Shown here one piece after another: positions 17,861 through 41,364 of a stretch of DNA of 64,000 nucleotides. The notes below the pieces were generated by a model. That model had not been told where the DNA came from. It was given only the letters and a program-made list of their open reading frames with translations, and made no database searches. The position numbers and the translations under genes were made by a program. Origin of the DNA: Bacteroidales bacterium. GTDB lineage: Bacteria > Bacteroidota > Bacteroidia > Bacteroidales > UBA7960. Position 1 is the stretch's first letter, and each line of letters starts with the position of its first letter. The DNA lies in the NCBI GenBank assembly GCA_003559735.1, contig PWKN01000117.1, positions 20,663-84,662 of the forward strand, in the 5' to 3' direction.

Positions 17861-18892
17861 TTACACTTCATCGATCAGTACCAGTTTTTTCCTGAGTTGA
17901 ACGGTTTCGTTAACCTTCATGATACACCTGCGTGCTTCGGCAAAACTCAGCGACTGCTGTCCGTCAGATATGGCCCGTTCGGGCACCTGATGAATCTCCA
18001 TCAGCAGTCCGTCGGCCCCGGCCATCACCGATGCCAATGCCATCGCCTCCACATAGGACCGGAGTCCGACTCCATGCGACGGGTCAGAAAAAACAGGCAG
18101 GTGGCTTTTCTCTTTCAGATAAGGGATGGCATTCAGGTCCATCGTATTGCGATATGCATTCTCGAATGTCCGTATACCCCGCTCACAAAGAATGATCTTT
18201 TCATTTCCGTTGGAAAACACATATTCGGCTGATGCAAGCAACTCTTCCAGGGTAGACGACATGCCCCGCTTCAAAAGAACCGGTTTGTCTACCCTGCCCA
18301 GTTCATCGAGCAGGTTGTAGTTTTGTGCATTGCGTGTCCCCACCTGGAAAATATCCACAAAATCATGCATTACATCTACCTGCGACACCTGCATCACCTC
18401 ACTGATCACATATATTCCGTTTTCCCTGCAGTGCCTGTATAACATCTTCAACCCCTCAATACCCAGTCCGCGAAAGGAATAGGGAGAGCTGCGCGGCTTG
18501 AACACCCCTCCACGCATCACCCTTACCCCTTCCGCTTTCAGGAACTTCACCATTTCTGCCACCTGTTCTTCATTTTCCACGGAACAGGGTCCCATGATCA
18601 TTGTAAAATCATTCCTGGAAATTGCCAAATCGCCGTTCAGGGGTATTCTGGTTGTCTCCACCTTCCACTGGCGGCTTACCAGCTTGCTGCTGTCCTTAAC
18701 CACGTGTACATCACGTATGCCGGGGAGGTTGCCAATATGCCGTATGTCAAATGGTGCAGATCCCACACAAACAATATACGCACCGTACTGGGTTTTTACA
18801 GTGGCCGGGGCATAGCCCAGGGTTTTTACCTCTTCAAGAATTCTGTTCTTGTTATTGGCCGAACAATCTTTTGTTGTTTGAATGATCATCAT
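17861..18892 (-). CDS. 3-deoxy-7-phosphoheptulosonate (DAHP) synthase, type I-beta, with N-terminal ferredoxin-like regulatory domain
   Basis: 343 aa. KPRSSPYSFRGLG and SDPSHG motifs, plus an N-terminal extra domain of about 75 aa. Its ATG overlaps the trpA stop by 1 nt (TGATG). Confidence 0.9.
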   Translation of the reverse strand: MMIIQTTKDCSANNKNRILEEVKTLGYAPATVKTQYGAYIVCVGSAPFDIRHIGNLPGIRDVHVVKDSSKLVSRQWKVETTRIPLNGDLAISRNDFTMIMGPCSVENEEQVAEMVKFLKAEGVRVMRGGVFKPRSSPYSFRGLGIEGLKMLYRHCRENGIYVISEVMQVSQVDVMHDFVDIFQVGTRNAQNYNLLDELGRVDKPVLLKRGMSSTLEELLASAEYVFSNGNEKIILCERGIRTFENAYRNTMDLNAIPYLKEKSHLPVFSDPSHGVGLRSYVEAMALASVMAGADGLLMEIHQVPERAISDGQQSLSFAEARRCIMKVNETVQLRKKLVLIDEV

Positions 18893-27081: not shown

Positions 27082-28851
27082 TCACAGGGGCCACACCATC
27101 ATGATCAACGGCACCCCGATCAGCACGATGATCACCTCAAGGGGTAGTCCCATTCTCCAATAGTCGGTAAACCTGTATCCTCCCGGACCCATCACCAGGG
27201 TATTCGACTGGTGTCCGACAGGTGTAAGGAAGGCACAGGAGCCTCCGACGGCGACAGCCATCAGAAAGGGGTCGGCAGACAATCCGAGACCGTTTGCCAC
27301 GCTGATGGCAATGGGTGCCATCAGCACCACCGTGGCGGCATTGTTTATAATGTCTGACAAGAACATGGTTACCACCAGAATCAGGGTAAGAATTGCCCAT
27401 GGAGGGAATATTTCTCCTGTAAGCAGTATCCGGGAGGCGATCCACGAGGCACCGCCGCTGGTTTCCAGTGCCGTTCCAACAGGGATCATTGCGGCAAGCA
27501 ATACGATCACAGGCCAGTCAATATTATGGTATACGTTTTTAAGCGGAAGGACCCCCGAGAGGACCATACCAAGGGCAGCCATGGAGAACGCCACCTGCAC
27601 GGGCAACAAGCCGGCCACCACAAGAATGATGGCACCCACAAAAACACCCAGTGCCAGCGGGATCTTTTGCTTGTAGCCAATCCGCAAACCGCGTTGCGCC
27701 AGGGGGAGACATCCGATGGTGGTAATGGCATCATCGAGTACATGCTCCCTGCCCTGCAAAAGCAATACATCGCCGGTACGAAAAACCACGTGGTCGAGCC
27801 GGCGGCGGATCCGCTGCTCCTTGCGTGCAACGGCCAGCAAGTTAATGCCAAAACGGCTGCGCATCCGCAAACCGGCCGCCGACTGTCCAACGACCGGAGA
27901 ATCAGGCATCACGATGGCCTCTGTAATACGGATGTTTTTCGAACCCTCCGCATCCTTCCTGAATTTCTTATCGCCTACAAGCTGCACCCCGGTATCATCA
28001 ATGAACGTTTTCAGCTCTTCTGTGTCTGTTTCGATGATGATGATATCGTTGTTTGCAAATGTTTCCTCCGGATTGGGAGCATGGATGCGTTTGCCGGCGC
28101 GGACAAAACCCAGGACCTGTACCCCGGCACCGGTTACTGTGTCGAGTGTGCCCACGGTAAGTCCCTTAATTTTGGATCTGGACGTTACTTTTACCTCCGT
28201 AATGTATTCATCAATACCAAACAGGTCTGTCTCCGATTTGGCACTGATCCGTTTTGGCAACAACCGCCATCCCAGCAGTGCAATAAAGAGAATTCCCGCT
28301 ATGGCCAGACTGATCCCCACAGGAGAAAAGTCAAACATTCCAAACGCCTGTCCGGCATAGTCTTTCCGAAAAGTGGCTATGATTATGTTTGGCGGAGTGC
28401 CTATCAGCGTTGTCATCCCTCCCAATAGCGAAGCAAAGGCAATAGGCATGAGGATATAGGAAGGCGGGTGTCCACTCTTTCTCGCCATGGCAATTGCCAC
28501 CGGCATCATTATGGCCAGGGCCCCTACGTTGTTCATAAAGGCTGATGCAACAGCAACGATCACAGACAAGGTTGTGATCTGCAGCAATAAGCCCTTCCCT
28601 GCCTTCATCACCCACTTCCCCAAAACATCAATCAGGCCCGAGTGTTCCAGTCCTTTCCCAATCACAAGTACCGCCGCAACAGTGATCACCGCCGGGTGTC
28701 CAAAGCCTTCAAAGGCTTCCTGGGGAGAAACAACACCGGCAACAACCATTATGAACAATGCGATCAGCGCCACCGCATCATGCCTGAACCATCCCCATGC
28801 AAACAAAATCAACACAAGCACCAACGTGCCAAAAACAATACCTTGTTCCAT
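27082..28851 (-). CDS. SLC13/DASS-type anion permease with central TrkA-C domains
   Basis: 589 aa. Two polytopic halves flank a soluble region of about 170 aa with a TrkA-C-like duplicated fold. Confidence 0.75.
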   Translation of the reverse strand: MEQGIVFGTLVLVLILFAWGWFRHDAVALIALFIMVVAGVVSPQEAFEGFGHPAVITVAAVLVIGKGLEHSGLIDVLGKWVMKAGKGLLLQITTLSVIVAVASAFMNNVGALAIMMPVAIAMARKSGHPPSYILMPIAFASLLGGMTTLIGTPPNIIIATFRKDYAGQAFGMFDFSPVGISLAIAGILFIALLGWRLLPKRISAKSETDLFGIDEYITEVKVTSRSKIKGLTVGTLDTVTGAGVQVLGFVRAGKRIHAPNPEETFANNDIIIIETDTEELKTFIDDTGVQLVGDKKFRKDAEGSKNIRITEAIVMPDSPVVGQSAAGLRMRSRFGINLLAVARKEQRIRRRLDHVVFRTGDVLLLQGREHVLDDAITTIGCLPLAQRGLRIGYKQKIPLALGVFVGAIILVVAGLLPVQVAFSMAALGMVLSGVLPLKNVYHNIDWPVIVLLAAMIPVGTALETSGGASWIASRILLTGEIFPPWAILTLILVVTMFLSDIINNAATVVLMAPIAISVANGLGLSADPFLMAVAVGGSCAFLTPVGHQSNTLVMGPGGYRFTDYWRMGLPLEVIIVLIGVPLIMMVWPL

Positions 28852-28908
28852 ACGACAAAAATAATTATTTTCGTAACCTGTATGTATTGTTCATAAACAT
28901 TCATAGCC

Positions 28909-29127
28909 ATGGAAAACATCCCTGAACTTTTTTCGGAACGCTTAACCCTGTTTTTGATCATCATCCTCTTTCTGGCGTTATGGGAAACCGCCTGGAAAAT
29001 GATCTCCATGTGGAAGTCGGCCAGAAGAAAGCAACTTGCGTGGTTTATCTGCCTGGGTATCTTCAACACCCTGGGCATCCTGCCCATCGTATACCTGTTG
29101 CTATACAGGAAGGAACCGGCAGCATAG
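28909..29127 (+). CDS. Small two-TM membrane protein (DUF5652-like)
   Basis: 72 aa. WKSARRKQLAWFICLGIFNTLGILPIVYLL resembles that family as I recall it. Confidence 0.5.
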   Translation: MENIPELFSERLTLFLIIILFLALWETAWKMISMWKSARRKQLAWFICLGIFNTLGILPIVYLLLYRKEPAA

Positions 29128-29259
29128 CCACAAAATCCGCCCTTAATCACATGCGCGTATAATTCCCGGCTGGGTCCACATGAAACAGGTCTGCCACAGG
29201 ATGGCCAGACACATTTTTCTGTTGTTTTTTTCGTTTTTAAGAAAAAAATATAAAAAAAT

Positions 29260-29290
29260 TTTGTTTTTATAAATAAAACACCTAATATTG
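29260..29290 (+). promoter_or_regulatory. Candidate promoter TTTG-N19-TAATATTG for the Phe/Tyr leaders
   Basis: TTTG at 29260-29263 and TAATATTG at 29283-29290. The spacing fits the Bacteroides -33/-7 consensus. It lies 27 nt upstream of the leader-1 ATG. Confidence 0.4.
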
Positions 29291-29316
29291 CAGTCGTCAA
29301 AAAGAAAGAAAAGATC

Positions 29317-29385
29317 ATGAACAGCACATTTGTCACCTATTTTTATTTTTACTTTTACTTCTTTAGCGATAAAGGGGTCTGGTGA
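29317..29385 (+). CDS. Phe/Tyr-rich leader peptide 1 (22 aa)
   Basis: MNSTFVTYFYFYFYFFSDKGVW*. Codons 8-16 comprise 5 Phe and 4 Tyr. Confidence 0.75.
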   Translation: MNSTFVTYFYFYFYFFSDKGVW

Positions 29386-29420
29386 TATTGTGTGCAGAAA
29401 ACCGAATAATTAAGTATCCA

Positions 29421-29447
29421 GACCCCGCAAAAGCGGGGTTTTTTTTT
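29421..29447 (+). terminator. Attenuator terminator 1
   Basis: ACCCCGC-AAAA-GCGGGGT followed by a 9-T run. CCAGACCCC (29418-29426) overlaps its 5' arm and is perfectly complementary to GGGGTCTGG (29374-29382) at the end of leader 1. Confidence 0.85.
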
Positions 29448-29464
29448 GTTACGAACTTAACGAT

Positions 29465-29572
29465 ATGATCCGACAAACATCAAATACAGCGTCTGCCCCG
29501 GCTTGTTTCTCAAGCTATTATTTCTTTTTTTATTTTATTCCCCGCTGGGGCCGGCAAATCTGTACCATTTAA
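29465..29572 (+). CDS. Phe/Tyr-rich leader peptide 2 (35 aa)
   Basis: MIRQTSNTASAPACFSSYYFFFYFIPRWGRQICTI*. The run YYFFFYF lies at 29516-29536. The ATG is 18 nt after the terminator-1 T-run. Confidence 0.6.
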   Translation: MIRQTSNTASAPACFSSYYFFFYFIPRWGRQICTI

Positions 29573-29585
29573 CGAACAGAGAAAA

Positions 29586-29614
29586 GGCCCCCGAAATGGA
29601 GGGCCTTTTTTTTT
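29586..29614 (+). terminator. Attenuator terminator 2
   Basis: GGCCCCC-GAAAT-GG(A)GGGCC (7 bp with one bulge) followed by TTTTTTTTT. It ends 15 nt before the pheA ATG. Confidence 0.8.
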
Positions 29615-29628
29615 AACAACATGCAAAT

Positions 29629-30591
29629 ATGAGTTACAACAGCAACATCCATTCAATAGCAATACAAGGAATAAACGGATCTTTTCACCACGAAGCGGCC
29701 ACGTTGTTTTTCCACGACAAACTGAACCTGATTGAGTGCATGACTTTCAGGGAGCTGGTAGGAAAGGTCACCTCCGGGAAGGCCGCCCACGGCATCATGG
29801 CTGTTGAGAATTCGCTTGCAGGAGGCATGCTCCCCAACCTGTCGCTGATCAGGGAGTCGGATCTTTTTGTGAGTGGTGAGCTGTATATGCGCATCAGCCA
29901 GAACCTGATGGCATTGCCTGGTCAGGATATATACAGCCTTACAGAGGTTCATTCACACCCGCTTGCCATCATGCAGTCGGAAGCCTTCTTTAGCTGCTTT
30001 CCGCACATCCGTCTGATAGAGTCGGCCGACACGGCGCTGAGTGCAAAAGACATTGCCGACAATCAGCGCTGGGGGGTGGGTGCCATTGGCAGTGATGTTG
30101 CGGCGAGGCTCTACGGCCTGGATATTCTGGCACCATCTATTGAGACAAACAAGGAAAACTATACCCGGTTCCTGGTTATTGGAAAACAGCCTTCTGTGGT
30201 GAGAGTCGAAGAGAAGGTCAAAGCCAGTGTGGCCTTTGTCATTCCGCACACTCCCGGAAGTCTGTATGAAGCGATGAAACCGCTTGCAGAAGCTGGCGTA
30301 AACCTGACCATGTTGCAGTCGTTGCCCCTGGTTGGTCAAAAATGGCAATATATTTTTCATGCCGACATGATCTTTCAGAATATGGCAGCGGCTACCTCAG
30401 TTATTGAAGCGTTCCGGACCGTTTTAAAACAATTATGGGTGATGGGCATCTATCCCTTGCAGAACCGCAGTGGCAGCAGTACTGCTCCGCGGCAGACAAG
30501 CTATGAGAAGATCCACGGAACCCGGCCGGCCGTTGCCGTCCACAATATACCGGAAACACAAAGCGTCAAAGAAGACAATACCAACAGGTAA
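29629..30591 (+). CDS. pheA: Prephenate dehydratase (PDT + ACT domains)
   Basis: 320 aa with the TRFLVIG motif and a C-terminal ACT-like region. There is no N-terminal chorismate mutase domain. Confidence 0.9.
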   Translation: MSYNSNIHSIAIQGINGSFHHEAATLFFHDKLNLIECMTFRELVGKVTSGKAAHGIMAVENSLAGGMLPNLSLIRESDLFVSGELYMRISQNLMALPGQDIYSLTEVHSHPLAIMQSEAFFSCFPHIRLIESADTALSAKDIADNQRWGVGAIGSDVAARLYGLDILAPSIETNKENYTRFLVIGKQPSVVRVEEKVKASVAFVIPHTPGSLYEAMKPLAEAGVNLTMLQSLPLVGQKWQYIFHADMIFQNMAAATSVIEAFRTVLKQLWVMGIYPLQNRSGSSTAPRQTSYEKIHGTRPAVAVHNIPETQSVKEDNTNR

Positions 30592-30603
30592 AGGATAACT
30601 GAT

Positions 30604-31461
30604 ATGAATATCTGTATCGCAGGATTAGGACTCATAGGCGGCTCTATGGCAACGGATCTGAAAAAGCGGGGTTTTGCCCGGCATATCACAGGTGTTGACA
30701 GCAATGAAAAACACTGTGATATAGCATTGAAAAAAGGATTTGTGGATGAGGTCGCTGGCTTGCGTCAAGGTGTGACAAAAGCAGACCTGGTCATTCTGGC
30801 CACACCAATTGATGTGATCCAGGACCTGTTGCCCGAAGTGCTCGACCTGGCCGGCAACACCCAAAAAGTCGTGACCGACACCGGTTCAACCAAAAAAGGG
30901 CTGACTGCAATCGCAGAAGGGCATCCCAATGGCAGGCATTACGTAGCCGGACACCCAATGGCAGGAACGGAATATTCCGGTCCATTGGCTGCCATCAGCG
31001 GTCTGTTTGACAAAAAGTGCGTGATCATATGCAACCGTCAGCAAAGCGACATTAACGCGCTCAGCCTGGTTGAAAAAATGTATGATGCATTGAACATGCA
31101 GATCATCCACATGCAGTCGGACGTACATGATGTCAGCGCCGCCTATGTTTCCCATATTTCGCACATCGTATCCTTTGCCTTGTCAAACTGCGTGCAGGAA
31201 AAGGAGCGCAACGAAAAACGCATCTTCAGCCTTGCAGGTGGGGGTTTCACATCCACAGTAAGACTTGCCGCCAGTGCCGCGAGTATGTGGACCCCCATTC
31301 TTCTGGAGAATGCAACGCCCGTACTGGAAGCCCTCGACGCATATATCGCCGGATTGTCAGATTTTCGCAAACACATCGCCAACCACGACAGCGACCGGCT
31401 CAATGAAATGATCACAGAGGCAAACAAGATTCAGCAAATTATCAACCTACCAATAAATTAA
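30604..31461 (+). CDS. tyrA: Prephenate dehydrogenase
   Basis: 285 aa with the Rossmann motif IAGLGLIGGSMA and HPMAGTE. Confidence 0.9.
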   Translation: MNICIAGLGLIGGSMATDLKKRGFARHITGVDSNEKHCDIALKKGFVDEVAGLRQGVTKADLVILATPIDVIQDLLPEVLDLAGNTQKVVTDTGSTKKGLTAIAEGHPNGRHYVAGHPMAGTEYSGPLAAISGLFDKKCVIICNRQQSDINALSLVEKMYDALNMQIIHMQSDVHDVSAAYVSHISHIVSFALSNCVQEKERNEKRIFSLAGGGFTSTVRLAASAASMWTPILLENATPVLEALDAYIAGLSDFRKHIANHDSDRLNEMITEANKIQQIINLPIN

Positions 31462-31468
31462 GTTTGTT

Positions 31469-32587
31469 ATGAAAACAACCCAGGCACGACAACAAAGCGC
31501 ACAAAAAAACGGGCATTCCCGTCCGGTATTGATCGCGGGTCCATGCAGTGCAGAATCGCCCCGGCAACTGATGGAAACGGCCAAAGCACTGGCCCTGACC
31601 AATCGTGTAGACTATTTCCGGGCCGGTGTGTGGAAGCCAAGAACGTCACCTGGTTCTTTTGAGGGAGTGGGAACCGAAGCGCTGAAGTGGCTCCAGGATG
31701 TGAAGGAAGCAACCGGACTGAAGGTTGCTACCGAAGCAGGTAATGTGCAGCATGCCCGTGAAGCCCTCAGGCACAATATCGACATGTTGTGGATCGGTGC
31801 ACGTACCGTAAGCAACCCTTTTGTTGTACAGGAAATTGCCGACACGCTGAAAGGGAGCGATGTCGTGGTAATGGTAAAAAATCCGATGGCTCCTGACGTA
31901 GATCTGTGGGCCGGCAGCATAAAACGTTTCCAAAAGGCAGGGATAAAAAATGTGTGTGCCATACACCGGGGTTTTTCCTATTGGACCCGTTCTGTGTTTC
32001 GCAACCATCCGTGGTGGCATCTTCCCATGGAACTCAAAAAACGTCTGCCCGACGTTCCGGTGATCTGTGATCCAAGTCATATCGCCGGCGACCGGAAACT
32101 GGTGCCAATGCTCTCACAAAGGGCAATGGAGATGGGGTTTAACGGACTCATGATAGAGGTGCATCCCAAACCTGAAAATGCACTCAGCGACGCCAACCAG
32201 CAGCTTACCCCTGCCAGCTTCCTGAAGCTGACCGAACAGCTTTTCGGGAACATACGCGACATAGATGGTCAGTACAATATGCTTGACGAACTCCGTGCAG
32301 AAGTGGATGTGATCGACCAGGTGCTGATCTGGGCACTCACCAACCGCATGAAGCTGGCTGGCGAAATTGCCGGGATAAAGAACAAGAACAACATGGAAAC
32401 GCTCCAGCCCCAACGTTGGAAGCAAGTCATTACAACAGCCGTTTCCCGCGCCAGGGAAAGCGGCCTCAGACCTGGCTTCATAGAAAAGCTTTTTGACGAC
32501 ATCCACCACGAATCATTATCGGTACAACGAAACGACGGAGCTGAAACCAAACAAATATCAGGAATTCGTCCTACCTTTGCAATTTGA
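31469..32587 (+). CDS. Bifunctional DAHP synthase (type I-beta) / chorismate mutase (C-terminal AroQ domain)
   Basis: 372 aa. KPRTSPGSFEGVG and CDPSHIAG motifs, plus a C-terminal helical CM domain of about 90 aa (LRAEVDVIDQVLIWALTNRMKLAGEIAGIK). Confidence 0.9.
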   Translation: MKTTQARQQSAQKNGHSRPVLIAGPCSAESPRQLMETAKALALTNRVDYFRAGVWKPRTSPGSFEGVGTEALKWLQDVKEATGLKVATEAGNVQHAREALRHNIDMLWIGARTVSNPFVVQEIADTLKGSDVVVMVKNPMAPDVDLWAGSIKRFQKAGIKNVCAIHRGFSYWTRSVFRNHPWWHLPMELKKRLPDVPVICDPSHIAGDRKLVPMLSQRAMEMGFNGLMIEVHPKPENALSDANQQLTPASFLKLTEQLFGNIRDIDGQYNMLDELRAEVDVIDQVLIWALTNRMKLAGEIAGIKNKNNMETLQPQRWKQVITTAVSRARESGLRPGFIEKLFDDIHHESLSVQRNDGAETKQISGIRPTFAI

Positions 32588-32803
32588 TACGCACCGGAAC
32601 CTGACCATTTACCGGCATAGTGGTGAATGATCATCGCGTACCCTGGTTGCCTCCGGCCTGCCTGCAAAAGTCTGCTTCAGCAGACCGGTATGTGGATGAT
32701 CCGGCATGAACCGGGCCATGCCAATATCCTGGCATACAATGGAATGATTATGACATGGCGGGTTCCATCTGCCGAAACATAAAAAACACAAACAGATGCT
32801 ACA

Positions 32804-33829
32804 ATGGATACGATCTTTGTAAAGGGGAGTTCGCGCAACAGCCGCATCCTTGTTGGCGAAACGATGGACAAACTGCCGGAATACATGCCCGGAAACCACG
32901 TGTTTATCATTACCGATAAGAACGTATATGACATATATGAAACATCATTCCCCCGCTTTCCCGTCTATACGCTGAAACCCGGAGAAGCGACAAAAACCCC
33001 CGATTCAGCGATCGACATTTGCCGCTGGCTAATGGATAATGGCGGCGGACGAGATGCTTTCATCCTGGGTATCGGCGGCGGCATGGTGTGTGATATGGCC
33101 GGCTTTGTCGCCTCAGTGTTTATGCGCGGAGTGGCATTCGGATTCGTTGCCACCTCACTCCTCGCCCAGGTGGATGCCAGTCTGGGGGGTAAAAACGGGG
33201 TAAACCTCGATGGATACAAAAACATCATTGGCACCTTCAACCAGCCACAATTTGTCCTGTGCGACACAACCATGCTGCACAGTCTGCCGGCTGATGAACT
33301 GAAAAACGGACTGGCAGAAGCAGTTAAGCACACGCTCATTGCCGATAAGCAGATGTTTCAACACATACTGAACCATGCAGGAGAGATCCTGGCCCTGGAT
33401 GAAGCACTGATAAACAAACTGGTGAGACATTCCATAGAGGTCAAATCGGCCATTGTTGGCAGAGATGAAACAGAAGCGGGTGAACGGCGCAAACTGAACC
33501 TCGGACATACCTGGGGACATGCAGTGGAAAAAACCGATGGCATTGCTCACGGACAGGCGGTAAGTATCGGACTCTCCTTTGCAGCAAAGCTTTCAGAAAA
33601 AAAACAAATGCTGAGTGCCGGCGACCGCATCACTATAAACGAACTGCTTCATTCACTCAACCTCCCGACAGAAACGGATACGGACCCAAGACAGATCTTC
33701 CGTGCCCTGGTCAGGGACAAAAAGAAGGAAGGCGATCACATCCATTTTGTGCTGATGAATGGCATTGGCCAGGTAACGGTTGAACCACTGTCCCTGTCCG
33801 AACTGGATGATTTTATTCAGACAATATAA
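32804..33829 (+). CDS. aroB: 3-dehydroquinate synthase
   Basis: 341 aa with GGGMVCDMAGFVA and LNLGHTWGHA. Confidence 0.95.
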   Translation: MDTIFVKGSSRNSRILVGETMDKLPEYMPGNHVFIITDKNVYDIYETSFPRFPVYTLKPGEATKTPDSAIDICRWLMDNGGGRDAFILGIGGGMVCDMAGFVASVFMRGVAFGFVATSLLAQVDASLGGKNGVNLDGYKNIIGTFNQPQFVLCDTTMLHSLPADELKNGLAEAVKHTLIADKQMFQHILNHAGEILALDEALINKLVRHSIEVKSAIVGRDETEAGERRKLNLGHTWGHAVEKTDGIAHGQAVSIGLSFAAKLSEKKQMLSAGDRITINELLHSLNLPTETDTDPRQIFRALVRDKKKEGDHIHFVLMNGIGQVTVEPLSLSELDDFIQTI

Positions 33830-33836
33830 AACAAAC

Positions 33837-34802
33837 ATGACACAGCGTTTCCCCGCTGACACATTAAATACAAACCAAACCCAAATGCACACGTTGTATG
33901 CTGTGTTTGGCAAGCCGGTATTGCACAGCAAAAGTCCGCAAATGTTCTCATCCATTTGGGGTGTGCAGGACAAGGTATGCTACACCCGGATCCTGCCCCG
34001 TTCAGCCGCCGATATCATCCATATCGTAAAAATCCTGAATATCCGCGGAGCAAGCATCACTGCTCCCTTCAAAGAGTCGGTGCTGCCATATGTCGATGAG
34101 GCAACCCCTGCCGTTAAGGCAATTGGCGCTGTCAACTGCCTGCACTACGCAGATGGCCTGGTAAAAGGGCACAATACGGACCATCACGGTGTTACCGGTG
34201 CCTTGAAAGAATCGGGCATCGCGCTCCGTAATGCAAAAATCCTGGTGCTTGGTGCCGGGGGAGCGGCCAGGGCTGCCGTATACGGACTGGTATCAGGGGG
34301 GGCGGAGGTAAGCATCAGCAACCGGACAGCATCAAAAGCAGCGGAACTCGCTGATCATTATGGTTGTGCGGTGGTTCCGTGGACCAGCAATGTGCGCATA
34401 CCCCGCTTTGATGCCATTGTGTCAACCCTGTTACCCGAAGCCCTGCCGCCCTTTATCGGCGTGGCAAAATACGATGTCCTGCTCGACGCCATCTATAAAC
34501 CTTCCAGGATGTCGGACCATGCCAGAAGGCAAGGCATCACTGTCATTGGCGGCGAACAGTGGCTGATCCACCAGGGAATAGAAGCAGCTGCCTTTTATGC
34601 CGGCACCAGGCCGGCACCCGGAACGATGGCCGAAAAGATCAATGCGGTCCCCGACAGGGACAAGCTGCAGATATGTGTGCTCCGGAAAAACAATGCAGGA
34701 CTCTGCGGACAACAATGTCCGGACCTTGTTGTTTCGGCCTTTGACCTCGACCAACATACAATCAATCAACTGATCAATGAAGAGAAAAGTTTGGCCTTCT
34801 GA
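33837..34802 (+). CDS. aroE: Shikimate dehydrogenase with a C-terminal extension of about 55 aa
   Basis: FGKPVLHSKSPQMF and VLGAGGAARA motifs. The start could be ATG 33837 or 33885, not ORF start 33780, which overlaps aroB. The tail overlaps aroA by 26 nt. Confidence 0.85.
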   Translation: MTQRFPADTLNTNQTQMHTLYAVFGKPVLHSKSPQMFSSIWGVQDKVCYTRILPRSAADIIHIVKILNIRGASITAPFKESVLPYVDEATPAVKAIGAVNCLHYADGLVKGHNTDHHGVTGALKESGIALRNAKILVLGAGGAARAAVYGLVSGGAEVSISNRTASKAAELADHYGCAVVPWTSNVRIPRFDAIVSTLLPEALPPFIGVAKYDVLLDAIYKPSRMSDHARRQGITVIGGEQWLIHQGIEAAAFYAGTRPAPGTMAEKINAVPDRDKLQICVLRKNNAGLCGQQCPDLVVSAFDLDQHTINQLINEEKSLAF

Positions 34803-36018
34803 AATTGACGGGGTGTTGCATGCACCCCCCTCAAAGAGCGCAGCCCAGCGAGCCATCCTGATTGCATCGCTGGCAAATGGTGTTTCTGAAATCTTGCGTA
34901 CAGGCACCTGCGATGATGTGATGGCAGCAACCGGTGTTTGCCAGACCCTTGGCGCAACAATAAGCCGGCAGGGAAACAGTCTGCATATTACAGGAGGCAT
35001 CCGCACACCCGGACAGCCGTTGCATTGTGGTGAAGCCGGACTGGCGATCAGGATGTTTTCAGGGGTGGCCGCCACACTTGACGGTAACGTAACCCTTACC
35101 GGTGAGGGGAGCCTGCTCAGGCGACCGATGGACACCATAGAGTCTTCGCTGAAAGCACTAGGGGTAAGCTGCCAGACAACAAACGGGTTTTTGCCCGTTC
35201 ATGTAAGGGGTCCGCTTAAAGGGGGCCATGCGGTCATAGACGGATCGCTGAGTTCGCAAATACTCACCGGGATACTGATCGCCGCCCCGTTTGCAGAAAA
35301 AGACACCCATCTGGCTGTTACCTCTTTAAAAAGCAAACCATATATCGACCTTACCCTGGAAATAATGGCTGCATTTGGTGTGGAAGCACATAACAACAAC
35401 CATACAGATTTCTTTGTGCGGGCTGGACAACGATATGGGGGCAGGCACTATGTGGTTGAAGGCGACTGGAGTGGAGCGGCGTTTTTGTTGGTGGCCGGGG
35501 CCGTTGCCGGACGGGTTATGGTGGGCAACCTGAACCTGAGCTCATTCCAGGCCGACAAGAAAATCCTGCATGCACTGCGAATGGCAGGTGCCCGGGTTAC
35601 AGAAGGAAACAACTGGGTTGAAGTGGCACACCAGCCATTGGGACCCTTTTCTTTTGACGCCACCCATTGTCCCGACCTGTTTCCTCCCCTTGCAGCACTC
35701 GCGTCAAATTGCCGGGGAGAAAGCCGTATTACAGGAGTGGAACGTTTACGGGCAAAAGAGAGCGACAGGGCCAGCACGTTAAAGGACATTTTTCAGCACA
35801 TGGGAATAGAGATCCGGCTGGAGGACAATACCATGTATATTTCAGGAGGCAAAAAACAAGGTGCAACAGTCAGCGCACACGGCGACCACCGCATTGCAAT
35901 GGCTGCTGCAATTGCCGCGCTTAATGCAGACGGACCGGTAACCATAGATGATGCACAGGCTGTTGATAAATCCTATCCTGATTTTTTTGACGACCTGAAA
36001 CACATCATGACAGAATGA
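34777..36018 (+). CDS. aroA: 3-phosphoshikimate 1-carboxyvinyltransferase (EPSP synthase)
   Basis: 413 aa with PPSKSAAQRA and GDHRIAMA. Confidence 0.95.
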   Translation: MKRKVWPSEIDGVLHAPPSKSAAQRAILIASLANGVSEILRTGTCDDVMAATGVCQTLGATISRQGNSLHITGGIRTPGQPLHCGEAGLAIRMFSGVAATLDGNVTLTGEGSLLRRPMDTIESSLKALGVSCQTTNGFLPVHVRGPLKGGHAVIDGSLSSQILTGILIAAPFAEKDTHLAVTSLKSKPYIDLTLEIMAAFGVEAHNNNHTDFFVRAGQRYGGRHYVVEGDWSGAAFLLVAGAVAGRVMVGNLNLSSFQADKKILHALRMAGARVTEGNNWVEVAHQPLGPFSFDATHCPDLFPPLAALASNCRGESRITGVERLRAKESDRASTLKDIFQHMGIEIRLEDNTMYISGGKKQGATVSAHGDHRIAMAAAIAALNADGPVTIDDAQAVDKSYPDFFDDLKHIMTE

Positions 36019-36192
36019 GAACCATACAACAACCTGTTTTTTGCATAACCTGCCCTATAGAAGCGTATCATCCGGGTCAGATGCAAGGCGGCAAAAGCCG
36101 CCGGCACAGGTTAAGCTGAAACCCAGGCAAACTGCTTCACCGGTTTTGCTGCTGCACAGCACCATCCGGGGTGAACAAATAATAATGTACAC

Positions 36193-37197
36193 ATGAATAC
36201 CTTTGGACGATTATTCAAAACACAAGTGTTTGGTGAGTCGCACGGACCATTTATTGGGGTTGTTGTTGACGGATGCTGTCCGGGCATTCCGCTCCTGGAG
36301 GAAGACTTCCTGGCAGACCTCGGCAGGCGCAGGGCGGGGGCAAAAGGGACTACCCCCCGTAAAGAGGAAGACATCCCGCAGATCACCTCAGGTGTATACC
36401 AGGGACATACCACCGGGGCCCCGCTGTGCATCGTGTTTGCAAACAAGAACGTACGTTCAGGGGATTATGCACACCTTGCCAGTACGCCCCGTCCCGGACA
36501 TGCAGACCTGGTAGCAAACAGACGGTTTGGCGGATTTAACGATCCGAGGGGTGGCGGTCATTTCTCCGGCAGACTTACACTGGCGCTGGTGGCCGCCGGG
36601 GTGGTGGCAAAAAAAATGCTCGGCAATGTCCACATCAGGGCACAACTGATCGAAGCCGGGGGGACCACAGATATTGAACGTGCCATTGATGATGCCCTGA
36701 AAGAGGGGGACAGCATCGGGGGGATTGTGGAATGCCGTGCCAATAATGTACCCGTCGGATGGGGAGAACCATTCTTCGATGCTGCAGAGTCGGTGATCAG
36801 CCATCTGGCCTTTGCCGTGCCAGCCATCAAAGGTGTTGAGTTTGGCTCAGGGTTCTCCGCAGCGTCAATGAAAGGCAGCCTGCATAACGATCCCATTGTC
36901 GACAAAACAGGAAAAACCGCTTCCAACAATGCAGGAGGGATAACCGGCGGACTAACCAATGGGAATGAGCTTGTGTTCCGGGTGGCCGTGAAGCCAACGT
37001 CGAGCATCGCCAAAAAACAACGATCCATCAACACGAAAACAAACACCATGGAAACCCTCGAAATAAAAGGCCGACACGATGCCTGTATCGCACTCAGGGT
37101 TCCGGTGGTCATAGAGGCCATCACCGCCATGGCACTGGCCGACCTGATGCTTCTGTTCAATGCACCCAAAGGGACGCACACTCGCCCACGAGGCTGA
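36193..37197 (+). CDS. aroC: Chorismate synthase
   Basis: 334 aa with FGESHGP and GRHDAC motifs. The C-terminus is affected by the 37-bp direct repeat at 37129/37199. Confidence 0.93.
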   Translation: MNTFGRLFKTQVFGESHGPFIGVVVDGCCPGIPLLEEDFLADLGRRRAGAKGTTPRKEEDIPQITSGVYQGHTTGAPLCIVFANKNVRSGDYAHLASTPRPGHADLVANRRFGGFNDPRGGGHFSGRLTLALVAAGVVAKKMLGNVHIRAQLIEAGGTTDIERAIDDALKEGDSIGGIVECRANNVPVGWGEPFFDAAESVISHLAFAVPAIKGVEFGSGFSAASMKGSLHNDPIVDKTGKTASNNAGGITGGLTNGNELVFRVAVKPTSSIAKKQRSINTKTNTMETLEIKGRHDACIALRVPVVIEAITAMALADLMLLFNAPKGTHTRPRG

Positions 37198-37340: not shown

Positions 37341-37400
37341 ATGAACCCTTTTGTCAACCATCATCAGCATCATCGTCATACAACCCCAACGGGGTGTTGA
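37341..37400 (+). CDS. hisL: his operon leader peptide (19 aa)
   Basis: MNPFVNHHQHHRHTTPTGC*. Five His fall within seven codons (37359-37379). Confidence 0.75.
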   Translation: MNPFVNHHQHHRHTTPTGC

Positions 37401-37435: not shown

Positions 37436-37461
37436 CCCCGGGAAACACCCGGGGTTTTTTT
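37436..37461 (+). terminator. his attenuator terminator
   Basis: CCCCGGG-AAACA-CCCGGGG followed by TTTTTTT. It lies 35 nt after the leader stop and 24 nt before the hisG ATG. Confidence 0.85.
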
Positions 37462-37484: not shown

Positions 37485-38348
37485 ATGAAAAATGACACAC
37501 TAACACTGGCTGTTCAGAAGAGCGGACGACTAAGCGAAGGATCGATAAATCTTTTAAAGCAATGCGGCATAAGGATACAAAACGGACGAAACCATCTGAA
37601 AGCCAAAGCCACGGGATTCCCCCTCGAGCTTATCTTCCTGAGCGACGATGACATACCACAATATGTTGAAGACGGCGTGGCTGCAGCGGGCATCCTGGGC
37701 CTGAATGAGGTGCTGGAAAAACAACGGAACGTGACTGTCATCAGGAAACTTGGTTTTTCCCGGTGCCGTTTGTCTGTCGCAGTGCCACGCAACACAGACT
37801 ATCCGGGACATGCATACCTTAACAACAAACGCATTGCCACTTCATACCCGGCAATACTGAAACAGTTTCTCGACGACAACAAACTCAGTGCAGAGATACA
37901 CCCCATCAATGGTTCGGTGGAGGTAACACCAGGACTCGGACTGGCAGACGCCATTTTTGAGATCGTGAGCTCCGGGGGTACCCTGCTGAGCAACGGGTTA
38001 AAAGAGGTCGAAACCGTAATGAAAAGCGAAGCGGTGCTGATCGCAAAACCTGATCTGCCCGAAACGATCAGTGCACTGCTCGAAAAACTCCTGTTTCGCA
38101 TCCAGGCGGTACAAAAAGCCGCCAACAATAAATATATTCTGCTCAACGCCCCTGAAGACAAGCTGGACAGGATCTCTGCCCTGATCCCCGGAATAAAAAG
38201 TCCGACAAAAATGCCACTGGCAGAAAAAGGATGGTATTCTCTCCATTCGGTGATCAGTGAAGATGATTTCTGGGAAGTGATCGATAATCTAAAGGAAGCC
38301 GGAGCAGAAGGCATTCTCGTTGTTCCCATCGAAAAGATGGTTACCTGA
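37485..38348 (+). CDS. hisG: ATP phosphoribosyltransferase (long form)
   Basis: 287 aa including the C-terminal regulatory domain. It is the first gene after the His leader. Confidence 0.92.
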   Translation: MKNDTLTLAVQKSGRLSEGSINLLKQCGIRIQNGRNHLKAKATGFPLELIFLSDDDIPQYVEDGVAAAGILGLNEVLEKQRNVTVIRKLGFSRCRLSVAVPRNTDYPGHAYLNNKRIATSYPAILKQFLDDNKLSAEIHPINGSVEVTPGLGLADAIFEIVSSGGTLLSNGLKEVETVMKSEAVLIAKPDLPETISALLEKLLFRIQAVQKAANNKYILLNAPEDKLDRISALIPGIKSPTKMPLAEKGWYSLHSVISEDDFWEVIDNLKEAGAEGILVVPIEKMVT

Positions 38349-38359
38349 CGTGCCATAAT

Positions 38360-39679
38360 ATGAACCAGAAAACCCCATCAATCATGAAAGTAATCAGCCG
38401 GATTGAGCCTGATGAATACCAAACTGTGTTGCGCCGGCCACCCGGATCCCATAGTGACATACAGGAAAAAGTCAGCGAAATCATTTCACGTGTTGATCGT
38501 GATGGCGATGAAGGTCTGCGGGCCTTATGCCTGGAGATCGACAAACAGGTGCCGGAGGCTTTTGAAATACCGCGCAGGCAGTTGCTGCAGGCAGCCAGTG
38601 ATGTGGACGATCATCTGAAAGCAGCACTGCAGCAGGCGGCAGACAACATCCGCACCTTCCATAAAGCCCAGATACCCGCAGATGTCACCACGGAAACCAT
38701 GCCCGGGATACGATGCACCATTAAGTATACCCCCATTGAACGGGTAGGGATATATGTTCCGGGGGGAACCGCTCCACTGTTGTCGACTGTTATGATGACC
38801 GCCATTCCGGCATCCCTGGCCGGTTGCCGTGAGGTCATTGCATGTACCCCGCCGGGGTCGCCGCCTGAGCTGTTATACACCTTCAGCCTGTTTGACATCC
38901 GCGTGTTTTCTGTTGGTGGTGCACAAGCCATTGCTGCAATGGCACTTGGTACCGAAAGCATTCCCAGGGCAGATAAAATATTCGGACCCGGCAATGCATG
39001 GGTTACCGAGGCAAAGATGCAAATGGCCGGTCGCGGTACTGCCATCGACATGCCTGCCGGCCCTTCTGAAGTGATGGTGATCGCCGATAAAACCGCACAA
39101 CCTGCCTTTGTGGCTGCCGACCTGTTGTCGCAAGCCGAACACGGCCCCGACAGTCAGGTGATACTGGTGGCAGACTCAATGGAGTTTATCCGGCAATGCA
39201 TGCGTGAAACACACCAACAGATGGCGTTGCTCCCACGGAAAGAAACCGCTGCCAAAGCCTTGCAGCACGGACTGGCAATTTGTGTACGCAATGTCGGTGA
39301 AGCCATCGGCATAAGCAACTTTTATGGTCCTGAACACCTCATCCTTGCCGTGAAAGATCCAGCCAAAGCGGCCGAACGGATCAGCAATGCAGGTTCTGTG
39401 TTCCTTGGCAACCACACCCCGGAAACAGCCGGCGATTATGCCAGTGGCACCAACCACACCCTTCCCACCGGTGGTGCAACAAAAGCCTGGAGCGGCATTA
39501 CCACGGCCTCTTTCATGAAAAGCATCACCATACAGGAAATATCGAGAGACGGGTTGATGCAACTTGCCCCCACCCTGCTTCAGCTTGCCAGGGCCGAACA
39601 GCTGGAAGCACACGCCAATGCCGTTCTTCAAAGAATACAACAAGATAAACAGCAACACCCGACAACTTCTATGCCATGA
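38360..39679 (+). CDS. hisD: Histidinol dehydrogenase
   Basis: 439 aa with QAEHGPDSQ and the Zn-ligand region. An alternative start exists at 38384 (MKVISR). Confidence 0.95.
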   Translation: MNQKTPSIMKVISRIEPDEYQTVLRRPPGSHSDIQEKVSEIISRVDRDGDEGLRALCLEIDKQVPEAFEIPRRQLLQAASDVDDHLKAALQQAADNIRTFHKAQIPADVTTETMPGIRCTIKYTPIERVGIYVPGGTAPLLSTVMMTAIPASLAGCREVIACTPPGSPPELLYTFSLFDIRVFSVGGAQAIAAMALGTESIPRADKIFGPGNAWVTEAKMQMAGRGTAIDMPAGPSEVMVIADKTAQPAFVAADLLSQAEHGPDSQVILVADSMEFIRQCMRETHQQMALLPRKETAAKALQHGLAICVRNVGEAIGISNFYGPEHLILAVKDPAKAAERISNAGSVFLGNHTPETAGDYASGTNHTLPTGGATKAWSGITTASFMKSITIQEISRDGLMQLAPTLLQLARAEQLEAHANAVLQRIQQDKQQHPTTSMP

Positions 39680-41364
39680 CATTTAATCTTCAATCGCTCG
39701 TTCCCCGGCATATTGCCAGGATGAAGCCATATACTTCTGCACGCGACGACTTTGGTGGCAGCCGTGAAAACAGGGTTTTTCTGGACGCCAATGAACTGCC
39801 TGACCCGCTTGTCGGCATGCCTCCAAACATCAACAGGTATCCGGGCAATGAGCCAGCCATGCTGAAAGAAAAGCTGGCGGCTGTAAAAAACACAGACCCT
39901 GCACAAATCTTCCTGGGCAACGGCAGTGATGAGATCATCGACCTGGTGATGCGCTGTTTTGCCCGGCCCGGGAAAGACCAGGTCATGATCTTTCCACCTA
40001 CCTTTGGCATGTATGCCGTAAGGGCTGAAGCGAATAATCTGGAGGTGCAGGCAGTCGGACTGGATGAGGGGTTTTTCGTCAGCCACGAAAAAACCATGCA
40101 GGCCATCACCCCAAAAACCAGACTGATGTTCATATGTCATCCCAACAACCCAACTGCCAATACACAGCCGGCCGAAGTGATCACCCGGATCCTCGAATCG
40201 TTCAATGGCATCGTGGTGGCAGATGAAGCCTACATCGACTTCTCACCAGAAAAGAGTCTGTTGCCGTTGCTTGCCAGGCATCCGAACCTGATGGTGGTAC
40301 AAACCTTTTCCAAGGCCTTCGGACTGGCGGGTGCCAGGATCGGGGTCGCTTATGCTTCTGAGGAAATCATCGCCACGATGGACAAAATGCGTTGTCCGTA
40401 TAACCTTGGAACACCTTCCATTGAACTGGCAGTAAAAGCCCTTGACAACCATGCAAGCTACCGGCTGTCTGCCTTGCGTATTACCCGAATGCGTGATAAG
40501 ATGGCGCAAGAAATAGCAGATATGCCACTGGTTGAAAAAGTATATCCCTCTGACGCCAACTTTTTGCTCGTCAAAACCAGTGACGCCAACTCCCTGTATC
40601 ACTACCTGGCAAACAAGGGGGTGATCGTTCGAAACCGTAATCATGAGCCGGGTTGTGCGGGTTGTTTGCGAATTACTGTCGGGACAGCCAGTGAGAACCG
40701 GCGCCTGCTTGATGCCTGGAAAAAGTATGGCAGCAGTGGTGGTGAACAGGACAAAACCTGTGATGCTGCGGGTGAAGAACAGCTGAAGGAGCGCAGGGTG
40801 ATGAAAAGGCGCAGCACGAGTGAAACCGACATCTCACTGGAGCTCAACCTTGATGGCACAGGCGATGTCCATATTGAATCAGGCATTGGCTTTTTTGACC
40901 ATATGTTGCATCAGATCGCCAAACATGGCATGATCGATCTTGACATCATTGTGAAGGGCGACCTGGAGACCGACCCCCATCACAGCATAGAAGATACGGC
41001 CATTACATTGGGTATGGCGGTTCTTGAAGCCCTTGGCAACAAAAAGGGAATTGAGCGTTACGGGTTTGCGCTTCCGATGGACGAAAGCAGTGCCCATGTG
41101 TTGCTCGACCTGGGCGGACGTTCATACCTGAAGTGGGATGTGGTATTTGATTCAAGCCATATTGGTGACATCCCTGCTTCCCTGTTCGGCCATTTCTTCC
41201 GGTCTTTTACCGAAGCGGCAAAATGCAACCTCCATGTCACTGCTACCGGCGAGGACGACCATCATAAGGTTGAAGCGATCTTTAAGGCTTTTGCGCGGAC
41301 ATTGAGGATGGCCGCTTCACGAAACAGATCGGGCATCATGCCTTCAACCAAAGGGGTGCTGTAA
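39676..41364 (+). CDS. hisC/hisB: Fusion protein: histidinol-phosphate aminotransferase (N) + imidazoleglycerol-phosphate dehydratase (C)
   Basis: Single uninterrupted 562-codon ORF. The N-terminal part carries FSKAFGLAGARIG (PLP-Lys). The linker is GSSGGEQDKTCDAAGEEQLKERRV. The C-terminal 187 aa carry the IGPD motifs DPHHSIEDTAI and GEDDHHKVEA. An internal ATG lies at 40801. Confidence 0.88.
   Translation: MTFNLQSLVPRHIARMKPYTSARDDFGGSRENRVFLDANELPDPLVGMPPNINRYPGNEPAMLKEKLAAVKNTDPAQIFLGNGSDEIIDLVMRCFARPGKDQVMIFPPTFGMYAVRAEANNLEVQAVGLDEGFFVSHEKTMQAITPKTRLMFICHPNNPTANTQPAEVITRILESFNGIVVADEAYIDFSPEKSLLPLLARHPNLMVVQTFSKAFGLAGARIGVAYASEEIIATMDKMRCPYNLGTPSIELAVKALDNHASYRLSALRITRMRDKMAQEIADMPLVEKVYPSDANFLLVKTSDANSLYHYLANKGVIVRNRNHEPGCAGCLRITVGTASENRRLLDAWKKYGSSGGEQDKTCDAAGEEQLKERRVMKRRSTSETDISLELNLDGTGDVHIESGIGFFDHMLHQIAKHGMIDLDIIVKGDLETDPHHSIEDTAITLGMAVLEALGNKKGIERYGFALPMDESSAHVLLDLGGRSYLKWDVVFDSSHIGDIPASLFGHFFRSFTEAAKCNLHVTATGEDDHHKVEAIFKAFARTLRMAASRNRSGIMPSTKGVL

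Follow-up and report, generated by a model that had tools for sequence, protein, structure and literature searches.

The DNA analyzed here is a 64-kb stretch (the window) of a metagenome-assembled genome (MAG) of a soda-lake member of the Bacteroidales, and it carries a gene cluster for phenylalanine and tyrosine biosynthesis that begins with pheA, the gene for prephenate dehydratase (PDT). Between a predicted promoter and the pheA start codon lies a pair of short open reading frames (ORFs) with runs of phenylalanine (F) and tyrosine (Y) codons, each followed by a candidate antiterminator and a predicted intrinsic terminator. We call each such set a unit, numbered 1 and 2 in the direction of transcription, and refer to its alternative pairings as protector (1:2), antiterminator (2:3) and terminator (3:4). 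The features of this leader are as follows.

29260-29290 (+): predicted Bacteroidota-type promoter, with -33 element TTTG (29260-29263), a 19-nucleotide (nt) spacer and -7 box TAATATTG (29283-29290)
29317-29385 (+): leader ORF 1, predicted translation MNSTFVTYFYFYFYFFSDKGVW, stop codon UGA at 29383-29385
29338-29364 (+): regulatory F/Y codons of leader 1 (codons 8-16)
29324-29395 (+): unit 1 protector (1:2), 29324-29337 with 29381-29395, plus an inner hairpin at 29357-29378
29374-29382 (+): unit 1 antiterminator 5' strand (region 2), GGGGUCUGG, the last sense codons of leader 1
29421-29440 (+): terminator 1, GACCCCGC-AAAA-GCGGGGTT, -14.6 kcal/mol, with a T9 run ending at 29447; 5' arm 29420-29428, 3' arm 29433-29441; whole element 29418-29447 including the antiterminator 3' strand
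29465-29572 (+): leader ORF 2, predicted translation MIRQTSNTASAPACFSSYYFFFYFIPRWGRQICTI
29516-29536 (+): regulatory F/Y codons of leader 2 (codons 18-24)
29485-29564 (+): unit 2 protector (1:2), 29485-29502 with 29544-29564, the F/Y codons lying in its loop
29547-29552 (+): unit 2 antiterminator 5' strand (region 2), GGGGCC, with its partner GGCCCC at 29586-29591
29583-29608 (+): core of terminator 2, AAAGGCCCCC-GAAAU-GGAGGGCCUUU, -15.3 kcal/mol, with a T-run ending at 29614

The coordinates and sequences of leaders, terminators and pairing segments quoted in an earlier note on this DNA were reproduced, with one amendment to terminator 1, for which the sequence is right and the start is not: position 29421 is a G, so ACCCCGC begins at 29422.

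F and Y account for 10 of the 22 codons of leader 1, and region 2 of this unit stops one base short of the leader stop codon. The segments GGGGTCTGG (29374-29382) and CCAGACCCC (29418-29426) are exact reverse complements and form a perfect 9-bp antiterminator duplex of -20.0 kcal/mol (z = -4.65 against shuffles), the 3' strand of which overlaps the 5' arm of terminator 1. The competing protector is present in both the minimum free energy (MFE) and the centroid folds, with a duplex energy of -19.2 kcal/mol (z = -2.5). Ribosome stalling was simulated either by masking the ribosome footprint or by restricting the fold to RNA that lies downstream of the ribosome. With no ribosome on unit 1, the protector and the hairpin at 29357-29378 sequester region 2 and the terminator forms. 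When the footprint is placed on the F/Y codons, the MFE structure contains the antiterminator (29374-29382 with 29418-29426) and the terminator is lost; when it is placed on the stop codon, the terminator is back. The description of leader 1 as having a clean antiterminator is thus borne out, both by the exact 9-nt complementarity and by its appearance in the MFE structure under a simulated stalled ribosome.

Leader 2 has F or Y at 8 of its 35 codons, seven of them consecutive. Its protector, which includes the segments GCCCCGGC at 29495-29502 and GCTGGGGC at 29544-29551, is found in the MFE fold with a duplex energy of -25.0 kcal/mol (z = -2.5), and because the F/Y codons sit in the protector loop, a ribosome stalled on them must break the protector. 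The GGGGCC/GGCCCC antiterminator encloses a small hairpin at about 29559-29580 and has a duplex energy of -15.0 kcal/mol (z = -2.45 against shuffles). The T-run of terminator 2 ends 14 nt before the pheA ATG (29629). When the fold is confined to what lies downstream of a stalled ribosome, the antiterminator of unit 2 forms, at -19.0 kcal/mol, before the terminator 3' arm is transcribed. Thermodynamic folding of this unit with a masked footprint was discarded, since it paired regions 1 and 2 across the ribosome, which is sterically impossible.

A scan of both strands of the window for ATG-initiated ORFs with at least seven F/Y per nine residues returned only leaders 1 and 2. A looser scan of the window, for at least three consecutive F, Y or tryptophan (W) residues with a terminator within 90 nt, added the genuine Trp leader described below and two overlapping weak matches beside the His leader. 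Compared with shuffled sequences, unit 1 folds with z = -3.7, unit 2 with z = -2.2 and the entire leader (29290-29630) with z = -4.0. The uniqueness of these F/Y-rich ORFs in the window, together with folding better than that of shuffles, excludes a chance origin. The sequence has also been recovered repeatedly: assemblies GCA_003567405.1 and GCA_003563955.1 and two Logan assemblies match it, two independent public assemblies of this organism show 100% identity across the 400 nt that lie upstream of pheA, and two shorter assemblies are identical over the approximately 260 nt that they cover, a span that excludes leader 1. This identity indicates that the tandem leader is not an assembly artefact.

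Public annotations of the region carry neither leader ORF. The public gene calls place instead a 169-aa ORF antisense over the promoter and the start of leader 1, at 28809-29336 (-), with an equivalent at L060:681-1190. This antisense ORF has no Pfam match, overlaps a DUF5652 gene (28909-29127, +) and is probably a spurious call.

The predicted promoter lies 26 nt before the leader 1 ATG, scores 9/10 in a motif scan and is conserved in the alignment with the related loci L001-L003; the -33/-7 consensus used for the scan is that of Bacteroides and Flavobacterium promoters. From its position, transcription would start at about 29297-29300. Of the loci with two units (see below), 15 of 17 have a promoter motif with a score of 9/10 or more before unit 1 and none has one before unit 2, the best score before unit 2 in the window being 7/10, and the spacer from T-run 1 to the ATG of leader 2 is only 17 nt in the window and 11 to 61 nt across the tandem loci. 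A second promoter ahead of unit 2 was therefore rejected on motif scores and spacing, and these data support one promoter serving both units through a leader of about 330 nt. They bear equally on the idea that the units belong to separate transcripts, with unit 2 driven by a promoter of its own in or after terminator 1 and unit 1 being a small gene that acts in trans as a small RNA or peptide. Such a promoter could be sought in T-run 1 and the G that follows it (TTTTTTTG, ending at 29448), which fit five of the six positions of the -7 box, but no -33 element is paired with this T-run, and the low scores and the tiny gap before ATG 2 speak against it in the window as elsewhere. Trans-acting RNAs and peptides derived from attenuators do exist (PMC7298713), rnTrpL/peTrpL of Sinorhizobium being an example; a trans role for the terminated unit 1 RNA would, however, supplement its role in cis and not supplant it. 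We consider separate transcripts highly improbable.

Loci were fetched via PDT (31 genome and 28 metagenome loci), by peptide words from the PDT of the window, which makes for a biased sample, and a unit was called where the 650 nt upstream of pheA contained an ATG-initiated ORF with an F/Y/W run and, behind it, a hairpin and T-run. This yielded 51 units in 34 non-redundant pheA loci, half of the loci being tandem (17) and half single (17); about a dozen further pheA loci, for example those of the Chryseobacterium group, have no unit. The tandem loci are those of the window and L001-L003, L006-L009, L013, L014, L016, L021, L035, L036, L041, L043 and L047. In a neighbour-joining tree of PDT, the tandem state is clade-consistent. 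Specifically, it is found in all nine loci of a Saprospiraceae clade, in four of the six loci of the Bacteroidales clade of the window plus L036, and in a third clade made up of L013, L047 and L016, while single units occur in Lentimicrobiaceae, Cytophagales and Flavobacteriales (L015 and L018 among the loci of the last). The earlier note had raised the question of whether one or two units are the norm in relatives: both states are common, and two units are the rule in the closest relatives.

Among these relatives, orthologues of the unit 1 leader are present in L001, L002, L003, L004, L005 and L036, and a terminator equivalent to terminator 2 lies 15 to 39 nt before pheA in L001-L003. The metagenome scan added one close relative covering the upstream region, L032, which matches L002. 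The N termini of the second-unit leaders are vaguely alike in Bacteroidales and Saprospiraceae (MIRQTSNTAS versus MNRRTSTIAA); the sequences are too short and divergent for a common origin of these second units to be claimed. L004 has one unit only. L005, from the MAG Bacteroidales CSSed162cmA_488 (2018-2075), has one F/Y leader with its terminator, a 7-nt spacer and then a leaderless terminator (GGGGCCCCAUAAAAGGGCCCU followed by T7) about 40 nt before pheA, which looks like either what is left of a former second unit or a constitutive terminator in tandem.

For each unit, we compared the best duplex between the terminator 5' arm and the stretch that separates the F/Y run from the terminator with that obtained from mononucleotide shuffles. 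Forty-five of the 51 units beat their shuffles (mean z = -2.9), and the pairing strand was found within about -33 to +22 nt of the leader stop codon, and thus where the classical model needs an antiterminator. The terminator arms vary among lineages (examples are GACCCCG, GGGCCCUG, AGUCCCG, AAGCUCCG and GGUCCUGC), with parallel changes in the upstream strands. Cognate strand/arm pairs are stronger than non-cognate pairs drawn from other loci (Wilcoxon p = 7e-9, a value inflated by related loci), and where two units share a locus, each mostly pairs better with its own arm. In an alignment of seven unit 1 sequences, 92% of cells are paired in the antiterminator, with two compensatory pairs (C-G to U-A), and 100% in the terminator, with three; both pairings collapse when the 3' partner is slid by one to three columns. 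RNAalifold run on this alignment recovers the terminator only; MAFFT leaves the 5' helices out of register. The alignment of unit 2 misplaces GGGGCC by one column, and per-sequence duplex tests were used for it instead. These show that unit 2 of L001-L003 has the GGGGCC/GGCCCC antiterminator in the same topology, around an inner hairpin whose sequence differs in each genome.

The same survey speaks to whether the ORFs matter at all. Since an F/Y run is by its nature U-rich, and permissive Rfam scanning gives weak, sub-threshold matches to PyrR and several small RNAs, one could propose that the U-rich tracts and hairpins constitute a nucleotide-sensing or protein-bound attenuator of the pyrBI or PyrR kind, or are chance structures in an AT-rich spacer. 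Such a proposal would have to contend with the strict in-frame T-[T/A]-[T/C] codon periodicity, with an ATG and a stop codon beside region 2, that is found in 51 of 51 units. Moreover, the downstream genes make phenylalanine and tyrosine, no comparable ORF occurs elsewhere in the window, and the trp and his operons of the window carry W-rich and H-rich leaders (H, histidine). We give this explanation almost no credence.

The data support classical ribosome-mediated transcription attenuation by two complete and independent units as the predicted mechanism. In each unit, a ribosome would translate a short ORF with interleaved Phe and Tyr codons. With ample charged tRNA-Phe and tRNA-Tyr, it would reach the stop codon, and the G-rich region 2 would be covered by the ribosome or recaptured by the protector strand; region 2 being unavailable, the terminator hairpin would form and RNA polymerase would stop at 29447 in unit 1 or at 29614 in unit 2. 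When Phe or Tyr is scarce, the ribosome would stall on the F/Y codons and keep the protector from forming, leaving region 2 free to take the terminator 5' arm and allow read-through. A polymerase that has passed unit 1 would be tested again at unit 2, where a second ribosome would load some 17 to 18 nt after the first T-run, and expression of the operon would be the product of two read-through probabilities. Compared with a single unit, doubling would thereby reduce the basal level, widen the dynamic range and make the response to Phe/Tyr starvation steeper. The analysis shows the sequence elements, their alternative pairings, the conservation and covariation of these and a single predicted promoter; we infer translation of both ORFs, termination at both T-runs, amino-acid dependence and multiplicative behaviour.

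The earlier note had proposed a series of two leader-peptide attenuators with a terminator apiece, and this reading is upheld by a layout that L001-L003 share with no fewer than two further clades of Bacteroidota, by the covariation of the antiterminators and by the single promoter. We put the probability that both units are working attenuators in series at roughly 0.8. Several points weigh against it. In the complete unit 2 transcript, the terminator fold (-26.7 kcal/mol) is more stable than a forced antiterminator fold (-22.9 kcal/mol), and antitermination in this unit must therefore rely on co-transcriptional kinetics. The leader 2 stop codon in the window lies 18 nt downstream of region 2, so that a terminating ribosome would be off GGGGCC. 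Specifically, leader 2 of L001-L003 ends in GGGGCC-TGA, whereas the window reads GGGGCCGGCAAATC and continues for six further codons to a TAA at 29570-29572, a displacement present in all four assemblies of the organism. In the geometry modelled from the stop codons, a ribosome at the stop would mask region 2 in unit 1 and in unit 2 of L001-L003; in unit 2 of the window, it would do so indirectly, through steric bridging or because the 1:2 helix forms again. The earlier note had found the ribosome-position logic of leader 2 less clear than that of leader 1, and the displaced stop and an antiterminator that is favoured only kinetically give this a concrete cause. Beyond the window, the unit 2 antiterminators of the closest relatives are invariant and provide no covariation; the protector helix, although strong in the window, is significant in only 15 of the 51 units; and the pheA loci are a biased sample with many related members, so that p-values overstate their independence. 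The benefit of doubling, a multiplicative and steeper response, is a purely theoretical expectation. On account of its frequency, the protector helix was dropped as a universal feature and is claimed for the window only.

The displaced stop and the fold energies could also mean that only unit 1 works here and that unit 2 is a decaying duplicate, acting as a leaky constitutive terminator or inert, as the leaderless terminator of L005 and the single unit of L004 would illustrate. Yet unit 2 of the window retains an intact ATG-initiated ORF with seven consecutive F/Y codons, a protector of -25 kcal/mol, an antiterminator with z = -2.45 and a good terminator, and independent assemblies agree on its sequence at all positions that they share. 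In addition, the second unit is retained over whole clades with antiterminators that fit their own terminators. Decay of unit 2 is in our judgment unlikely, and attenuation at both units is the reading that we favour.

Both units appear to address the same signal. Summed over the tandem loci, the leaders of unit 1 contain 74 F and 57 Y codons and those of unit 2 contain 80 F and 70 Y codons, which agrees with the earlier observation that both leaders mix Phe and Tyr codons and fits downstream genes that make both amino acids. A division of labour, with one unit for Phe and the other for Tyr, was rejected on this equal mix, and because F and Y are equally mixed in both units, each is predicted to be a sensor of Phe or Tyr shortage and the pair is not a gate that requires shortage of Phe and of Tyr. 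The suggestion of an AND-type response accordingly holds only insofar as read-through is required at each of two identical sensors, and fails as Phe-AND-Tyr logic. Our view of the doubling itself, held with little more than even confidence, is that it is a selected, same-signal, two-stage design, kept over family-level divergence in at least three Bacteroidota clades and not a local duplication, which would multiply two stalling decisions into an ultrasensitive, low-leak response to the charging of Phe and Tyr tRNAs, and that it would be the first natural instance of stacked classical attenuators.

An Rfam scan of the window found no family at its threshold. Under permissive settings, the Phe_leader family (RF01859) scores 28.6 bits at 29511-29613 and 25.8 bits at 29327-29448, compared with a gathering score of 55, and the remaining matches are noise; with the threshold missed, the units would resemble Phe leaders in function but are not members of the family. 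Similar to E. coli pheL-pheA (RF01859) and the trp, his, leu and thr attenuators, each unit has a short ORF rich in codons for the end product and a choice, which the ribosome would set, among a 1:2 protector, a 2:3 antiterminator and a 3:4 intrinsic terminator, and similar to pheL-pheA the leader lies directly upstream of prephenate dehydratase. The differences from pheL-pheA are that there are two units in series here and one there; that the codons here are mixed Phe and Tyr, fitting an operon with prephenate dehydrogenase and DAHP synthase, whereas pheL has Phe only; that a Bacteroidota -33/-7 promoter and an A-rich start context devoid of a Shine-Dalgarno sequence are used; and that the two share no detectable sequence homology.

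The leader of the Salmonella mgtCBR operon, the nearest precedent, contains tandem attenuators, mgtM and mgtP (Lee & Groisman 2012, PMC3641672). It resembles the present leader in having two short ORFs (translated there, predicted to be translated here), each over its own alternative stem-loops and with independent effects on elongation. The mgtCBR ORFs respond to two different signals, ATP and proline, with an effect reported as additive, the stem-loops bear no resemblance to intrinsic terminators and the operon does not serve synthesis of the amino acid sensed (PMC3641672). Thus, of the hallmarks of an mgtCBR-type leader, two ORFs are found here, while different signals and absence of terminators are not: both units are predicted to respond to one and the same amino-acid pair, and a canonical hairpin and T-run are present in each. 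Nearest in function are tandems for a single ligand among other regulatory RNAs, for example two complete thiamine pyrophosphate (TPP) riboswitches in Bacillus anthracis and the thrZ T-boxes. Like them, the present leader stacks complete units of sensor and terminator for one signal, an arrangement thought to make the response more digital and its dynamic range higher; unlike them, it would sense by a translating ribosome and not by an RNA aptamer or a tRNA-binding RNA, and two translation initiations would each have to synchronise with the polymerase. A tandem riboswitch for S-adenosylmethionine (SAM) and B12 at metE is cited in PMC3641672, whose authors state that biosynthetic operons have one attenuator as a rule and term the two-signal leader of mgtCBR singular.

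Within the Bacteroidota, a conserved structured 5' element with no Rfam match has been reported upstream of pheA in Flavobacterium psychrophilum and other Flavobacteriaceae, in a transcriptome study that also reported "strong clues" that amino-acid biosynthesis operons are attenuated by leader peptides upstream of them (Guerin et al. 2021, PMC9723704). The main text of that study gives no tandem arrangement; the Flavobacteriales loci in our survey have one unit (L015, L018) or, in the Chryseobacterium group, none. Full-text searches of the searchable literature, to which subscription-only papers do not belong, turned up no tandem leader-peptide attenuators for amino-acid biosynthesis. The earlier remark that no description of leader-peptide attenuators in series had been seen therefore stands for the same-signal layout in that literature and falls for series in general, given the two leader ORFs of mgtCBR, the one such case that the searches found (PMC3641672). 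What looks new here is a recurrent and apparently selected doubling of a textbook switch, the mechanism itself being known.

Drawings of leader-peptide attenuation nearly always show a single sensor for each operon, and studies of it come almost exclusively from Proteobacteria and hardly at all from Bacteroidota. A conserved double attenuator for one signal would be the ribosome-sensor counterpart of tandem riboswitches and T-boxes, and would offer a natural system for the effect of stacking on gain, leakiness and noise. It would also imply that Bacteroidota couple transcription and translation tightly enough for two ribosome loadings on a 330-nt leader, despite initiation that is independent of a Shine-Dalgarno sequence. 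Genome annotation is affected, in that a probably spurious antisense ORF is called over the leader. Practical value would be modest, in the form of a compact and portable amino-acid-responsive part for synthetic biology in Bacteroidota.

Two further leader-peptide attenuators are predicted in the window, ahead of the trp and his operons.

25800-25623 (-): Trp leader attenuator ahead of the trp operon, with -7 box TAATATTG at 25800-25793
25772-25692 (-): Trp leader peptide, MKRSKHTFCFWWWHNSLGCCVRCYRP, containing WWW
25656-25623 (-): Trp terminator, AAAAAGCCCGCUUG-ACACG-CAAGCGGGCUUUUUU
37341-37400 (+): His leader, MNPFVNHHQHHRHTTPTGC, containing HHQHHRH
37436-37461 (+): His terminator, CCCCGGG-AAACA-CCCGGGG followed by T7

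The Trp leader scores 27 bits against the Rfam Trp_leader family, compared with a threshold of 41, and folds with z = -4.8; the His leader matches no Rfam family at its gathering threshold and is followed by hisG (37485-38348), hisD (38360-39679) and a gene for a 562-aa hisC-hisB fusion (39676-41364). The presence in the window of Trp and His leaders with terminators of their own indicates that leader-peptide attenuation is routine in this organism. Each of these operons has one unit, and within the window doubling is specific to the Phe/Tyr operon.

Downstream of the tandem leader, seven genes, all assigned by Pfam, run in the same direction.

29629-30591 (+): prephenate dehydratase (pheA product, PDT)
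30604-31461 (+): prephenate dehydrogenase
31469-32587 (+): DAHP synthase + chorismate mutase fusion
32804-33829 (+): 3-dehydroquinate synthase
33780-34802 (+): shikimate dehydrogenase
34777-36018 (+): EPSP synthase
36193-37197 (+): chorismate synthase

From their common strand and spacing, the genes from 29629 to 37197 are predicted to form one transcript. Two gaps interrupt the series, one of 216 nt before the dehydroquinate synthase gene (32588-32803) and one of 174 nt before the chorismate synthase gene (36019-36192), and both could hold internal promoters or terminators; their content bears on whether the Phe/Tyr attenuators really govern the genes of the common pathway. The operon of the clade of the window lacks a gene of about 1.2 kb that most other Bacteroidota loci (L006-L031, for example L007:3799-5113) have between prephenate dehydratase and prephenate dehydrogenase, and that presumably encodes an aminotransferase. 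A second DAHP synthase gene, which encodes no chorismate mutase domain, is located at 17861-18892 (-), where the trp gene cluster has its distal end. The aromatic pathway thus seems to have separate isoenzymes for its first step, of which the Trp leader would control one and the Phe/Tyr leaders the other, which would be a transcriptional analogue of the three E. coli isoenzymes AroF, AroG and AroH.

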